In this document: in pieces, positions 35,488 through 41,521 of the stretch
How positions within the stretch are numbered: the stretch's first letter is position 1
Layout: every line of letters starts with the position of its first letter
Assembly (NCBI RefSeq): GCF_011745625.1
Contig: NW_027191470.1
Location: 1 to 64,000, forward strand
Length of the DNA: 64,000 nucleotides
Direction of reading: 5' to 3'
From: Cladosporium halotolerans
Taxonomy: Eukaryota
Position numbers and translations under genes: made by a program
Notes under the pieces: generated by a model
Database searches by the model: none
What the model saw: only the letters and a program-made list of their open reading frames with translations
What the model was told of the DNA's origin: nothing

Positions 35488-38351
35488 TCATGAGCCTTGG
35501 TCCCGACTGTCCTTCTGCTGCTTACTCAGCCGTCTCCGCCCTTGCGCGTCTACGCTGAAGCTCCTTCTTCTCCTTCTGCCTCTCCTTTCTCCCTCATCTC
35601 CATACCCATCCCTTTCACGCGAGGCCCCTCTGGGAACCCTAGTCTCAACCTCCATCTCAACCACGTCTCCCTCAGGCGACGTAGTTGCAAGGCGGGTGAA
35701 ACTCTTGCGCGCTAGAGGACTGCGGCCTGTTCTTTGAGCGGATGAGCCGGGATGGTAAGTTCGTGGAGGCATCAGGAGATGAGGTGGGTCGTTGTCATGA
35801 GGCTGAGTGGGCGTGTATGAGCGGGGCTGAGGTGGCGGCGGATTTGGATTCCTCTCTCGAGACGGAATGCCGAAGTGCATAGAGACCGAGGAGGAAGAGC
35901 TCAAGCAGCGGGAGCGGCCGACTACCGGCGGATCATTGCTACTTGCATGGCGCGATTCGGTATTCTGAGCGCTAGTAGGCTGCGCACGAACAGGCGCTGG
36001 GGGCAACGATCGAGGCGCCTCAAAGTAAGCTCCTCCTGCGGGCCGTTGGGCTGCTTGCTGGTTATGATACGTCGTGGCAGCTTCGATACCTACGAAGCTT
36101 TCCACGCGTCGAGGAACCAAAGTCGAACGACTAGATGCGGTCCCCAATCCCAGCGATTGCCAACTTGTCCTTTGAGACGCGATAGCTGTTTCTTGCTCTC
36201 CCGGAGGGCGCTGGGAAAGATCAGGCCGTAGGACCTCCGAGTCGTTTGCTTGGTGATACCAGCCTCCAGGGAGCTGCTCAGAAGGAGCAAATCTGCCTTG
36301 TAGATGACTGGGAGGCTGCAAAGGGGCGTGAATATATCTGTTCGTCCGAGCTTCTGCCGCTGGCCTAAAGGTTTCTGGATCGACGTTCAGGTCATCTCCG
36401 GTAGCTTCTGCGTCGGCGACGACCTGTTCCGCTGTCGTCTTTTCGTCCGCCTTCCCTGCATCGGCTCTTGGTCCGCCCCAGGTTCGTTGACCTGCAGTGC
36501 ATATGCCGTACTGGCGTTCCAAGTCAGTGTATGGCATTAATACAGAGATGAAGCATACTCACCACCATGTACAACCAATTGAAAGCAGGGTTGACCACGA
36601 ACATGAGCGGATACAACATGATCTTGTATCGACCAAGCTTTGCACCGAAGTAAAGCATCAAAACCCAATTCAGCCCCAGGGACACAGCGATGAAGCCGAC
36701 CGGTAGGTTCTTGATCTTTTGAGAGGTCGTGAGGATGGATATGACCATAATGAAGAATAGAAGGGCTGTTGTGCGGATCGCGTTCTGGGCGAGACGTATA
36801 ACCAGCAAGAGAGGGTAGCGTTTCCACAGGCGTATGTCAGTTAGCATGCAGACTTCGTTGGTGATGAAGCCCAAGAACCACCGTCGGCGCTGCTTGAGTA
36901 AACTCTTGAACGTTTGAACAGCCTCGGTCTTGCAGAATGCTCCAGTGTTCATTTGGATTTGGTAGCGTTCCTTCGCACTCTACACCATCGGGTTAGCCTA
37001 GGTTAGACCGCAGTATCATTAGCCCGCACGTTAATGTACTCACGACCATGAACAGATGTGTCAGGAACCGATCCTCTCCTAAATGGTTCTTCCAATAGTC
37101 GAAATGATCCTCGCACTGCTCCGCCTTATCCGCGAAATAAAACTTCGCCAGCTTGCGAAAAGCGCTGAAGCGAAGCATGGTGAGCGCGCCGGGCAGACAA
37201 GTCACAGCGCCGCAGCCGCTCTCAACCGTCCTCTCGAATAATTGGCCGTGCACATATTCCATGTCTTGGAGGACAGTGATGAGCCGATGCTTGACCGTGG
37301 TACTCGTTATGATTCCCGTCTGAGCAAGCATATTTCGATTGCTGCCGGGTTTCAGCTCCATCTCGTACATGAAGTTCTGTATGCAATGCGCGTCGAGGAT
37401 ACAGTCACTGTCGATGAAGAGCATGAAAAGATCGTCATTCCGGCGAAGGTAGTCTTGGTACACACGATCGATGAGGCGAAATGTTTTCTTTTGGCAGCTA
37501 CGCTTGCCTCCATGGGGGAACCGAGACACCGTGATGCGGCAGCCGCGGTAGGCAATGTCGATACTTCGAGGAAATGACTCGAGGGTGATCGGTACGCCCA
37601 GTTTCTCAATTGTCCGGAGATAGAGCTCATTTTCTTCCTCGCCGTCAAACGAGAGGAAAATGTGCAAGCAACTTGGCGGGTATGCGCAGTCCACTAGGGA
37701 GTCCACTGTGCGAAGGAGAATCTCCGGCTCTTCGTTGTAGCATGGCATGATAATGACGACCTTCGGCGCGGTATGCTCATCCAGAACGTATTTGATCCGG
37801 CGTTCTCTTCCAACGTTGTTGATGACCAGCTGGTAGACGCAGAACAACCAAGGAATAGTCAATAGCCCAGCAAAAGACCAGAACGCGAACCTGAAGCGGC
37901 TGGTTAATATCCATGGGCCTCATCAAGAAGCTCAACGGTAGCGTGCGCCATCAACTGCGCCTCCGGTGGTACTTACTATGCAGCAGTCAGCACTCTCCCG
38001 GCAGCAGTATCTCACTTCGCGGCTGTCATCACATACCCATTGTAACACCTCCACCACCCCTTGTGGGAAAACTCTCACGATCTGTGCCGGTAAAGGTAAT
38101 GTGACAACCATGATGGGTAGGAACACACACCGCATTGCGATGAAGAACACCATGTTAGCAACCGCCAAAACCCGAGTCGACCACTTGTCAGCCTTCTGCG
38201 TCACCTTCATCAAACAGAACAGAAATGCCAGCAGCCAAAGAATCCATTCGAGTAAAGCGGCAACCATGATAGTCCCGACGATGGAGACGTAGATGATGTC
38301 TTCCACAGGCCAAGGCTCATTGAGCGCTCTGTTGAAGAGGGCGGTAGCCAT
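35488..38351 (-). CDS. Chitin synthase (ChsD-like, simple GT2 class), multi-exon
   Basis: PCYNE, FIDSD, QDMEY, VTCLPGA, LGEDRFLT and QRRRW motifs, with N-terminal TM helices and a low-complexity C-terminus. Confidence 0.92.
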
Positions 38352-38959
38352 TGAGCAAGGAGAGCGGGAAAGCGAAGGAGAAGATGTTTATGACAAGTCC
38401 TTGCCTTTTTGTCAACTTCGGGAATATTTCATGTGCAGATGCCGCGCCCGGTAGCGCAGGTACCCGTGGAGAAGGCCCGGCGCGCTCGTCACACAGGTGA
38501 GCGCGAGGGCGGTGCAGTGCGACGTAGTTGTTAGGGAAGATGTGGACGGGTGGCGTCATGTAGAGTACTTGTGGCGCGGCATACTATACTGTAAAAACGG
38601 ATGGGAAGTTGCGGCGAGATGCAATGCGCCGAATCAGGGGCGTCTGCCGCATTGGACAAATATATGCTTCCTCGGCTCGACAGGTGAAGTGGTTTCAAGG
38701 AGGCAAGGCAAAGCCAAGGCAGGAACGACGTCGACTGACAAATCAGTACTCATCCATTGACAATCTTATATTGTGGTCAAAGACCATAGTCCCGACGTCC
38801 AAATGATATAGTCAATGTCTTGTGATGAAAAAGCTGCATCACAATAAATGTCCACGAGGGTTGTTCTAGATTCCGTCACAAGTCGAGGGCATCCTTGGCT
38901 TAAGATTTATGTGAGATTTATAATGCAATAGATTCCAGTTTGCGTCATCAGCAACCAAT

Positions 38960-39150
38960 GGCACTTTGGGTAAGCTTGCACCAAGTATCCTTCTGGTCAT
39001 CTCAGGCATTAACAAATTCTCCAGCGGAGTGGTTAACGCGCTGCCCTGCTAAGGCAGTTCCGTAAGTCATGCCTCAGACATTCCATGTCGTCGATCAAGT
39101 CCTAACAGCCATCCAGTTCGGGAGCGTGTGTTCGAATCACACAGGTGTCG
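38960..39150 (+). tRNA. tRNA-Ser(GCU) interrupted by two spliceosomal-type introns (38970-39024, 39062-39116)
   Basis: Spliced 81-nt product: GGCACTTTGG|CGGAGTGGTTAACGCGCTGCCCTGCTAAGGCAGTTCC|TTCGGGAGCGTGTGTTCGAATCACACAGGTGTCG. Acceptor GGCACTT/AGGTGTC with discriminator G, D-stem GCG/CGC, anticodon stem CTGCC/GGCAG with GCT, variable arm TTCC-TTCG-GGAG, T arm GTGTG-TTCGAAT-CACAC. Confidence 0.9.
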
Positions 39151-39155
39151 ATATA

Positions 39156-39162
39156 TTTTTTT
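39156..39162 (+). terminator. Pol III-type oligo-T terminator after the tRNA
   Basis: T7 run beginning 5 nt after the discriminator base. Confidence 0.75.
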
Positions 39163-39607
39163 GTCTTTATCGCGGGGTGACTATGAACGCCCTTCGGAGT
39201 ATGATGTTCACTCCATACTTCTTTGTAGATTGCTTTTGCAAATCGGGACGTAGGGCTCTGTTCGACACAATGACAATGTGCGCTATTCCGTCCTTTCGTT
39301 CAAAAGGAAAATCTACAAAGCACGCACCGCTTTCCTGGGAATTCCCAATCACCACAAAGCCCAGATGTTACAGCAGCGTCTTCGAGTAATAACGATGGCT
39401 CTCACGGTTTTCCTCGAAGTCGACGTGCAGATCGCTGCAGCAACAGATCATACCGAGGTCACGCTTCCGCGATAAGCTTATCGGCATCAAGGTAGCGTCA
39501 TTCAACCTCACCTCCGTTCCAGCGATACAAAGAAAGAGTCCTATTTTTATTTTTTTGACTGTCAAAATAATACCATCGTGATACCCTATCTTTACATCAT
39601 ATTTAAA

Positions 39608-40501
39608 ATGGTTACGGAACGAAAACCGCTCACGTTCCTCACGTTACCACCTGAGATCCGCAACTCGATCTATGCCCTGCTGTTCATCCCTCCCGTAGAC
39701 GACTCGATACCAGAGATCCCAGACATTGAATGCCCGATCGCAAAGGCGCTCTTACCAGACGATCACGATCCCAAATCCTACGATGACGGAGGCAATGCAT
39801 GTGACACCAAGCCCACCGTCTCAAAACGTCCGCCATCACACCTTGACACTCTCCTCACGTGCCGCCAGATCCATCGCGAAGCCCAGCTTCTGGCGCTGAG
39901 CACCACCATATTTCATCTGCATTCGACGATCGCGCTGCCTGAGGCCTTCGCATTGCGATCACAATCGCTGTCAACGCCGAAACTAGGCGCGCTTAGACAC
40001 CTGACCCTCACCGCTCGAATCACGCAGCTGCGCGCCTTGAACGAGACATGGAATGGCCGGCCGTTCGGACAATCAAGTCTGCAATTGGAGACATTGACAC
40101 TGGTCCCTTTGCGGCCAAATGCAGCGAACACAGCATGGGCGGAGGTCGCGGAGCTGGATCAGTGCCACACACTCGCGCATGTGCTGGCCGAGACGCTGAA
40201 GAAGCTGAGCAAAGTGAAAGAGGTCAGAGTCGTGAACAAAGGATGTTTCGGCGAAACAGTCTGGCCGTTAGTGTACAGACATCTGGTGTTCAAGGTGTGG
40301 AAGTGGGGCGGGATGAACTGCGGCGTGAGGGTGGATTGTTCTCGGAATAAACAGGAAGGATGGTTCAAGGCCTACCTGGACCAGCCTATAGACGAATGCT
40401 GCGACAGAAAAGGGAGGGACGCCTGTATTGAGGCTTTCCGACTCATGGGTGCCGAGGGAACAAACCCGAATGCTGTCGCTGGCATGCCATGGGAATCGTG
40501 A
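39608..40501 (+). CDS. Hypothetical protein with F-box-like FLTLPPEIRNSIY N-terminus
   Basis: ORF of about 300 aa with LPPEIRNSIY and LLTCRQIHREA motifs. Confidence 0.75.
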   Translation: MVTERKPLTFLTLPPEIRNSIYALLFIPPVDDSIPEIPDIECPIAKALLPDDHDPKSYDDGGNACDTKPTVSKRPPSHLDTLLTCRQIHREAQLLALSTTIFHLHSTIALPEAFALRSQSLSTPKLGALRHLTLTARITQLRALNETWNGRPFGQSSLQLETLTLVPLRPNAANTAWAEVAELDQCHTLAHVLAETLKKLSKVKEVRVVNKGCFGETVWPLVYRHLVFKVWKWGGMNCGVRVDCSRNKQEGWFKAYLDQPIDECCDRKGRDACIEAFRLMGAEGTNPNAVAGMPWES

Positions 40502-40647
40502 TCATTCTTTGCCTGATTGAAGAGTTGTACATTGTAGAAACGTAGACTCGCAAACAAACTCCACTGAGAACGCCCGGCGTGCAGCAAAAGAATTAGATGT
40601 TCCTGCAGCCAATCTTATGCCTTCTGGTATCAAAACAAAGACTTCCT

Positions 40648-41187
40648 TTACCTCTTCCTCTGTGCGCCCCTGACCAGTAGTCCGCCGACGACTCCTGCAG
40701 CCACGGCAAGGCCACCAACAATGGCAACGCCAAACAGCCCCTCCTTCTGCACCTTATCTTCGATCAGATCGCGCAGGCTCTGCGCTTGCAGGTTACCCTC
40801 CTCGATCTCCAGCAGGCTATCGGTGTATCGCCTTGCCTCCGCATAGTTCCCAAGCTTGTAGTGTCCCAGCGCAAGGTAGTAAAGGCACTCCCGTCGGCGG
40901 TCGGGGCTCTGGCGGAAGATATCGGAGAGGAGCTGGACGCCGAGCTGTTGCTCGTCGCGCTTGTTCGATTTGATCAGACCCCAGGCGTAGTTGAACTTCG
41001 TCTGGAGAGAAGGGTATGGGTCCTCTTTCTCATACTGAGAGCGAAGGACGGCGAGCTCGGCGGGTTTGAGGGCGGATTCGGCGTCGGCCGCGTCTGGGAG
41101 GCGGGTAGTGTTAGACATGACCGCGCTAATGCTTGAGGTCGTGAGCAAGGTATACATATACTTACAAGGTAGTCTGTCGGAAGGCAT
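40648..41187 (-). CDS. FIS1: Mitochondrial fission protein Fis1
   Basis: LPYAADAE (after one intron), [25 protein letters not shown] and a C-terminal TM with basic tail. Confidence 0.95.
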
Positions 41188-41300
41188 GGTCGTGTGTATC
41201 GTGGCGCGCACGTGGTGATTTGTTCTAGAACTCCCGTTTGCTCTCGCTGCCGCCTGCGATCAGCCGGGCTTCAACTCAGCGGTTGGCCATTGCGTCATTC

Positions 41301-41323
41301 ACGCGCCGGTCCGCCAACGCGCG
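41301..41323. promoter_or_regulatory. MCB-like ACGCG pair in the FIS1/SPC24 divergent promoter
   Basis: ACGCG at 41301 and 41317, upstream of a kinetochore gene. Confidence 0.35.
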
Positions 41324-41521
41324 AGCTAATTCCCCAGACTAGACCAACTCTGGAACTTTGTTTCCAGAAGTAAACATGAGCCTTTCGAGATACTGCAACT
41401 TCAGCATCTGATTACTATACCACCTATACGTCGCGTACAGAGCTGATCTAGCAGCACTTGCCCTCGGCCTCTCTGACACTCCCAAAGTCTTGATCCACAC
41501 AGTCTCGACAGTTTGGTCACT

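Follow-up and report, generated by a model that had tools for sequence, protein, structure and literature searches.

Can a nuclear transfer RNA (tRNA) gene be interrupted by introns of the kind that the spliceosome removes from messenger RNA (mRNA) precursors? The question is raised by a locus at positions 38960..39150 (plus strand) of a stretch of 64,000 nucleotides (nt) from the fungus Cladosporium halotolerans (contig NW_027191470.1, positions 1 to 64,000; referred to here in its entirety as the window), in which an earlier note, written from the sequence alone, had described a tRNA-Ser(GCU) gene split by two GT-AG introns at non-canonical positions. We favor the reading that this is a working nuclear tRNA-Ser(GCU) gene with two genuine U2-type (GT-AG) spliceosomal introns and, on the strength of sequence comparisons, put its probability at about 0.72.

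The gene consists of three exons and two inserts of 55 nt each, all on the plus strand, and the coordinates, letters and splice signals that had been claimed for them are found exactly. Exon 1 (38960..38969, 10 nt) supplies tRNA nt 1-10, comprising the 5' acceptor strand, U8, G9 and G10. It is followed by intron 1 (38970..39024, 55 nt), which lies in the D stem between nt 10 and 11, begins with GTAAGC, ends with TCCAG, and contains the branch-like word TTAAC with its A at 39012, 12 nt from the end. Exon 2 (39025..39061, 37 nt) contributes nt 11-47, spanning the D arm, the anticodon arm (GCT) and the 5' strand of the variable stem. Intron 2 (39062..39116, 55 nt) is located in the variable arm between the 5' stem strand and the TTCG loop (47/48 of the joined 81-mer), with GTAAGT at its 5' end, a CTAAC branch motif whose A at 39105 is 11 nt from the end, and again TCCAG at its 3' end. 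Exon 3 (39117..39150, 34 nt) provides the loop and 3' strand of the variable arm, the T arm, the 3' acceptor strand and the discriminator G. Because G flanks both ends of intron 1, its cuts can be placed in two equivalent ways, only one of which gives GT-AG; intron 2 permits a single placement. The anticodon loop, CTGCTAA, is uninterrupted as the earlier note had stated, and the canonical 37/38 intron position is not the one used.

Joining the three exons in silico yields an 81-mer that ARAGORN calls as tRNA-Ser(gct). All of the pairs in its five helices are standard (24/24), the anticodon is GCT, the discriminator is G, and the variable arm forms a 4-bp stem capped by the TTCG loop, such that the joined molecule has the features of a class II serine cloverleaf. 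Removal of a single insert does not give this result: with intron 2 removed and intron 1 kept ARAGORN finds nothing, and with intron 1 removed and intron 2 kept it forces a wrong model with an anticodon-loop intron. On the genomic sequence ARAGORN reports no tRNA anywhere in the 64-kb window, and the Rfam tRNA model gives a partial match of 31.2 bits (threshold 29) over model positions 9-63, which treats intron 2 as an insertion and is the sole tRNA match in 64 kb. The claim that the cloverleaf forms only when both inserts are taken out is thereby borne out, the proposed comparison of the spliced 81-mer with the genomic sequence (made here with ARAGORN) gives Ser(gct) versus no call, and the expectation that tRNA scanners would miss the gene holds for ARAGORN, with the Rfam model picking up little of it. 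The joined 81-mer is also identical at 81/81 positions to L096, an uninterrupted gene on an unrelated metagenome contig that scores 58.1 bits against the Rfam tRNA model.

With the ends fixed by the tRNA, the joint chance of finding GT, AG and a branch motif at 10-13 nt is ~1e-4 per insert. The arrangement is beyond chance because the motifs coincide exactly with the tRNA-fixed borders and because the joined product matches L096 throughout. To our knowledge, the spliceosome is the only machine that recognizes GU...YURAY...YAG in inserts of 50-60 nt. The inserts also have the dimensions of the mRNA introns in the window, a likeness that had been pointed out earlier and that agrees with the introns identified here. 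The Fis1 intron (41094-41165, minus strand; GTAAGT...CTAAC...CAG), whose joint is confirmed in RNA run X15, is 72 nt long, and mRNA introns predicted from restored reading frames are 52-64 nt long; the 55-nt tRNA inserts fall within this range of short mRNA introns. Introner-like repeated introns would be present in a genome as numerous near-identical copies; within the 64 kb, neither intron 1 nor intron 2 has a second copy, the two show no likeness to each other, and the unspliced 191-nt precursor folds no better than shuffled sequences (z -0.46).

Interrupted homologues of the gene are present on metagenome contigs. These were scanned with a 30-letter exon 2 pattern in which four letters were left free, giving at least 117 loci that were sorted by ARAGORN and by reading of the sequences. 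Among the matches listed, 105 are uninterrupted Ser(gct) genes, five are cut by a contig end (L006, L058, L059, L113 and L114), and seven are interrupted. Three of the interrupted genes (L007, L012 and L106) carry inserts at exactly the two positions used in the window, and a fourth (L024), whose 5' end is cut, is interrupted at the intron 2 position and has a CAG directly before exon 2. In L092 the first insert is at 9/10, one nt further 5', and the second is in the T loop; the latter is 57 nt long and of the GC-AG type (GCAAGT...CTAAC...CAG). Within the first insert of L092, the final 7 nt of exon 1 and the GTA behind them occur once more, as though the region of the 5' splice site had been duplicated locally. 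The remaining two genes, L087 and L103, have a single insert in the 3' strand of the variable stem, where an 81-nt tRNA requires that the 3' cut be made at an AAG 4 nt downstream of a CAG; a cut at the CAG would leave 4 extra nt in the variable arm.

The window gene and these seven loci together hold 13 inserts, all 51-57 nt long. Twelve begin with GT and one with GCAAGT (the T-loop insert of L092), all 13 end with AG, and a YTRAY motif with its branch A 10-13 nt from the end is present in 12 of the 13, the exception being CTTAC in L012. Each of the seven complete joined forms (7/7) is an 81-nt tRNA called as Ser(gct) by ARAGORN. Applied to the interrupted loci as they stand, among those listed, the same program finds none of the six with complete borders (0/6) and mis-models one more; if the interrupted genes work as proposed here, standard tRNA scanners would systematically miss real genes.

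Conservation among these genes follows the exons and the splice signals. In an alignment of six loci (A1), exons 1 and 3 lie outside the search pattern; exon 1 is identical at 10/10 positions in L007, L012 and L106, and exon 3 is identical at 28-34 of 34 positions among the genes with both shared insert positions. The exon 3 differences are all two-sided changes of T-stem pairs, which result in four different T stems. Five helix pairs change on both sides, one of them in the variable stem, and every helix pair is standard in 7/8 genes. Identity between genes is 28-78% in the introns and 27-67% in the flanks. The interior of intron 2 in the window is alike beyond shuffles to those of L007 (z 2.8) and L024 (z 4.4), and is not clearly alike to that of L012 (z 1.6, reached by 28/300 shuffles); across the pairs among the window, L007, L012 and L024, five of six have z 2.8-6.6, a likeness that suggests common descent. 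Intron 1 interiors are mostly not alike beyond shuffles. Exons and splice signals that appear to be under selection, with interiors that drift, are expected of a functional gene whose transcript is spliced and not of a dead copy. The seven additional interrupted genes, with exons and splice signals kept as the interiors change, thus also support the earlier view that the locus is not a decayed pseudogene.

Closer relatives were sought in public sequencing runs, four of which (X1, X3, X7 and X15, of 24) were compared with the window in the form of contigs. X1 is a source-like DNA run that contains 0.98 of the words of the window. The tRNA sequence is common to several loci, and the X1 contigs are accordingly broken within it; at least four other X1 contigs share 39122-39150 with different 3' flanks. 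The exact joined form is on no X1 contig; X1 contigs also miss 39047-39121 of the locus itself, and this result is therefore no evidence of absence. On one 28.9-kb X1 contig (record 2), the stretches matching 39021-39055 and 39117-39150 are separated by six other letters, from which it follows that the variable arm of this gene is uninterrupted. A branch-like word and ...CCAG immediately precede its nt 11, and by its letters it is a second gene of the source-like genome with an intron-like end at 10/11. In the major form of X3, a strain ~98% alike, the GTAAGC start, branch region and length of intron 1 are kept, and the interior differs at several places.

X7 requires a different interpretation than its label, 'RNA?', would imply. 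The run covers 29/30 bins, it contains mRNA intron sequence without joints, and over 36500-41500 it has two versions of the region, ~99% and ~92% alike and at similar depth. Coverage of introns and intergenic regions, the absence of mRNA-intron joints and the pairing of the contigs lead us to take it for DNA from two related genomes; read in this way, its tRNA joints are not evidence of splicing. The two versions could be those of a mixed culture, a hybrid or a misfiled library. One X7 contig (record 22) matches 38444-38792 at 94.5%, continues into a diverged upstream flank, and then has exon 1 joined directly to exon 2; another joins 39061 to 39117. The relative represented by these contigs, ~5-8% diverged, probably also has the locus without intron 2. 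As judged from these comparisons, the inserts are gained, lost or erased on short time scales, plausibly through gene conversion between copies of the tRNA gene. In both X3 and X7 contigs the alignment stops at 38792 and resumes at the tRNA, and the segment 38793-38958, between the chitin-synthase-like gene and the tRNA, is far more diverged between close strains than its surroundings.

How such a gene might be transcribed is suggested by words in and around it. For comparison, U6-like genes of RNA polymerase III and the tRNA genes of fission yeast have a TATA element near -30 to -40, internal A and B boxes and a T-run terminator, and lack T runs in between. A TATA-like word, TATAAT (38919..38924, plus strand), lies 41 nt upstream of the mature 5' end and is a candidate TFIIIB/TBP site; we infer that it would set the transcription start such that exon 1 is included. 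An A-box-like word (39022-39032, plus strand) is formed by the CAG end of intron 1 together with exon 2. It is a near-complete A box, agreeing in 10/11 letters with the A-box region of the uninterrupted gene, and its re-formation by CAG and exon 2 may be the reason that an intron is tolerated exactly between nt 10 and 11. A B-box-like word, TGTTCGAATCA (39129-39139, plus strand), is located in the T arm within exon 3, and a run of seven T residues (39156..39162, plus strand) starts 6 nt after the tRNA end and resembles a terminator of RNA polymerase III (Pol III). Among the homologues, a TATA-like word is present at -37 to -48 in all of the genes with a D-arm insert (5/5), and a run of at least four T residues occurs within 25 nt downstream in all interrupted genes (8/8). 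The TATA-like word is found at 13/50 uninterrupted loci with flank GC of at least 0.40, a taxonomically mixed comparison set, and many fungus-like uninterrupted genes have similar upstream words, so that the TATA excess is taken as context.

Two further upstream words recur. In the window and in fungus-like uninterrupted loci (e.g. L008, L033, L096 and L098), words like CATCAA or ATCA are present shortly before the mature 5' end (-1 to -25), and ACATAT or TATATA occurs near -45 to -55. These may reflect an upstream promoter architecture shared by the tRNA genes of these fungi.

Several observations weigh against a working gene matured by the spliceosome and are gathered here. Splice-like motifs taken alone are as common as chance (the loose pattern GTRNGY...YTRAY...YAG occurs 59 times in the window, with a shuffle mean of 60.6) and were dropped as evidence, and the identity of exon 2 is largely by construction, 26 of its 37 letters being the search pattern. 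The metagenomic contigs are not assignable to organisms, local blastn and tblastn comparisons of their 300-600-nt flanks with the window show nothing shared outside the tRNA, and L012 and L024, with 34/51 identical positions in the 3' flank, are the sole pair for which orthology is shown. X15, which is clearly RNA and in which the Fis1 joint is seen, has no cover over the tRNA locus and is uninformative on its expression. L103 has a broken D-stem pair, C10:C25, its nt 10 being C where the other genes have G; L103 may be an allele or copy of L087 in decay, and some interrupted copies may accordingly be decaying. The relative ~5-8% diverged has the locus without intron 1, and this together with the identical uninterrupted genes indicates that the introns are dispensable. 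The window's copy might be redundant, identical intronless genes such as L096 are, like the X7 locus without intron 1, a real complication, and junction-spanning reads alone would not prove splicing at this locus. The identical uninterrupted genes, the locus without intron 1 and the broken pair of L103 could be accommodated by a silent or decaying copy, in which the inserts entered a redundant gene that gives no working tRNA and all tRNA-Ser(GCU) is supplied by uninterrupted copies, and the at least four other X1 loci that share the 3' end of the gene point in the same direction. We nonetheless regard such a copy as improbable, given that the exons in the window are unchanged relative to an uninterrupted gene, that the seven other interrupted genes keep their helices by two-sided changes as introns and flanks drift to 27-78% identity, and that promoter-like and terminator-like words are retained. 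The splice signals kept in 12-13 of the 13 inserts would be unexplained if the inserts were never removed.

The remaining difficulties concern transcription and the machinery of removal. Intron 1 places the A box 55 nt farther from the start, and Pol III would normally initiate inside intron 1; that a TATA-based placement of the start answers this displacement is an assumption. For a Pol III transcript that lacks a cap and begins with an exon of ~10-20 nt, splicing has U6 as its only precedent. TTTT, a word expected to be avoided in Pol III transcripts, is absent from all 13 inserts (0/13, 705 nt), and since shuffles contain a mean of 2.44 and none in 113/2000 cases, this depletion is marginal (~0.06) and a weak hint. 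The displaced A box would pose no problem if the introns are spliceosomal and the gene is transcribed by RNA polymerase II (Pol II), as a TATA-driven non-coding transcript that is spliced co-transcriptionally and from which the tRNA is cut out by RNase P and RNase Z. The TATA-like word in every gene with a D-arm intron fits this arrangement, and Pol II transcripts are the usual substrates of the spliceosome (PMC12530127). The T runs that follow all eight interrupted genes, as they do their uninterrupted relatives, argue for Pol III instead, as does, marginally, the lack of TTTT in the inserts, and the upstream words are likewise of the kinds that occur at uninterrupted relatives; we consider transcription by Pol II unlikely. 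Far less likely still is removal of the inserts by a protein tRNA-splicing endonuclease and ligase with the GT-AG ends being incidental. The fungal tRNA-splicing endonuclease measures from the mature domain to 37/38, and GT or GC, AG and a branch motif at a fixed distance, recurring at four or five positions, are not predicted from its action. In a crude scoring at all offsets, which relaxed motifs may escape, no bulge-helix-bulge (BHB; two 3-nt bulges flanking a 4-bp helix at the cut sites) beyond shuffles is found in any of the 13 inserts, with 77-480 of 500 shuffles reaching the observed score of each (421/500 for intron 1 and 388/500 for intron 2 of the window). The defining features of Sen-type and BHB-type tRNA introns were thus looked for and are absent, and the inserts do not belong to either type, notwithstanding that non-spliceosomal introns in the D arm, T arm and variable region are known in archaea, Cyanidioschyzon and nucleomorphs (PMC4090602).

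Returning to a working gene with spliceosomal introns, we propose the following pathway. Transcription would proceed from the upstream TATA-like element to the T run, with the start set as in U6 genes, and the enzyme would most likely be Pol III, an assignment to which we give even odds on the words described above. Pol III would be aided by the B box of exon 3 and by the A-box-like word formed from the CAG end of intron 1 and exon 2. The spliceosome would then excise both 55-nt introns as lariats branched at A39012 and A39105, and RNase P, RNase Z and CCA addition would complete an 81-nt tRNA identical to the product of the uninterrupted genes. The introns probably originated by reverse splicing into the tRNA, followed by reverse transcription and recombination, and would afterwards have been gained, lost or erased through gene conversion among the tRNA gene copies. 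A broader proposal is that filamentous fungi have a lineage of nuclear tRNA-Ser(GCU) genes matured by the spliceosome from Pol III transcripts, with introns at four or five places at least (9/10 or 10/11, two variable-arm sites and the T loop) that have been kept for a long time; here we see the case for and against as equally balanced.

The tRNA locus is situated between divergent genes, one chitin-synthase-like (minus strand) and the other encoding a DUF7730 protein (plus strand), and genes for Fis1, a dual-specificity phosphatase and a BSP peptidase are found farther along the window. The locus belongs to the nuclear genome of a fungus, and gene content and intron style suggest a filamentous ascomycete. 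Many of the loci matched by the exon 2 pattern (L001-L117) have other settings: they are uninterrupted Ser(gct) genes on contigs that are AT-rich and mostly marine (e.g. L003, L019, L025, L039 and L051), closely packed among further tRNA genes. Such an arrangement points to large viruses, organelles or protists and not to fungi.

Spliceosomal introns and tRNA introns are treated as unrelated classes with separate machines (PMC12530127, PMC10275265, PMC4090602); three nuclear intron types are called unrelated (PMC12530127), and two splicing machines are contrasted (PMC10275265). A full-text literature search found no description of spliceosomal introns in tRNA genes, with subscription journals being outside its scope. 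If the genes are expressed as proposed, some fungi would rely on the spliceosome for the tRNA that reads AGY serine codons, the spliceosome would have a Pol III substrate besides U6, and reverse splicing would be shown to create introns in an RNA distinguished only by its abundance. The broader proposal of a lineage of such genes would, if true, show further that introns can be seeded in this way in abundant RNAs without a link to the spliceosome, add a fourth way of interrupting a tRNA gene, and imply that the tRNA gene sets of many fungal genomes are under-annotated. The family of interrupted genes would also provide a small natural model, 190 nt in length with two introns and a structural read-out, for the splicing of RNAs that are uncapped and highly structured.

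Canonical nuclear tRNA introns lie at 37/38 and are removed by the Sen endonuclease and joined by the Trl1 ligase (PMC10275265, PMC12530127, PMC4090602). As with these, a nuclear tRNA gene is interrupted here and precise removal is needed for a working tRNA. The tRNA-Ser inserts differ in their positions (10/11 and the variable arm), in having GT-AG ends and a branch motif, in lacking an anticodon-intron helix or BHB, and in sharing the length and signals of the mRNA introns of the host. The introns at non-canonical positions are a closer match in their placement: those of archaea, Cyanidioschyzon merolae and nucleomorphs, the only groups named for such tRNA introns in the available part of PMC4090602, also occur several to a gene in the D, variable and T regions and are missed by scanners (PMC4090602). 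They are BHB-dependent, or are 3-24 nt long with unknown signals (PMC4090602), whereas the tRNA-Ser inserts have no BHB and carry full spliceosomal signals; the string 'spliceosom' does not appear in the available text of that article.

Hosts of spliceosomal introns among non-coding RNA genes include those for U6, U2, U5, U1 and ribosomal RNA (rRNA), listed in a review that also discusses reverse splicing (PMC5855946), in agreement with the statement of the earlier note that such introns are known in U6, in other small nuclear RNA (snRNA) genes and in rRNA genes. U3 small nucleolar RNA genes also have spliceosomal introns (PMC5832005). The fungal snRNA, U3 and rRNA introns resemble those described here in having ordinary spliceosomal signals in non-coding RNA genes, and they too were recognized computationally, with experimental proof in few species (PMC5855946, PMC5832005). 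These hosts differ in being mostly Pol II or Pol I transcripts, and tRNA is not named as a host in the available portions of those articles.

The closest parallel is the mRNA-type intron in the U6 gene of Schizosaccharomyces pombe and other fungi (Tani and Ohshima 1989, 1991, as cited in PMC5855946). As in S. pombe U6, a short GT-AG intron with a branch site interrupts the gene of a small structured non-coding RNA (PMC5855946). The U6 gene is transcribed by Pol III from an upstream TATA element and internal boxes, and the same kinds of words are seen at the tRNA-Ser locus, where Pol III is the candidate enzyme. U6 introns are thought to have arisen by reverse splicing, and their presence or absence varies among relatives and paralogues (PMC5855946), as it does for the tRNA-Ser inserts. 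Unlike U6, tRNA is not part of the spliceosome, and the insertion cannot be put down to proximity to the catalytic centre; the gene carries two introns, with at least four to five positions used across the family; and the first exon comprises 10 nt plus a leader, with one intron splitting the A-box region. By analogy, we suggest that the introns of this tRNA-Ser(GCU) gene work like the mRNA-type intron of U6, with tRNA being a new class of host.

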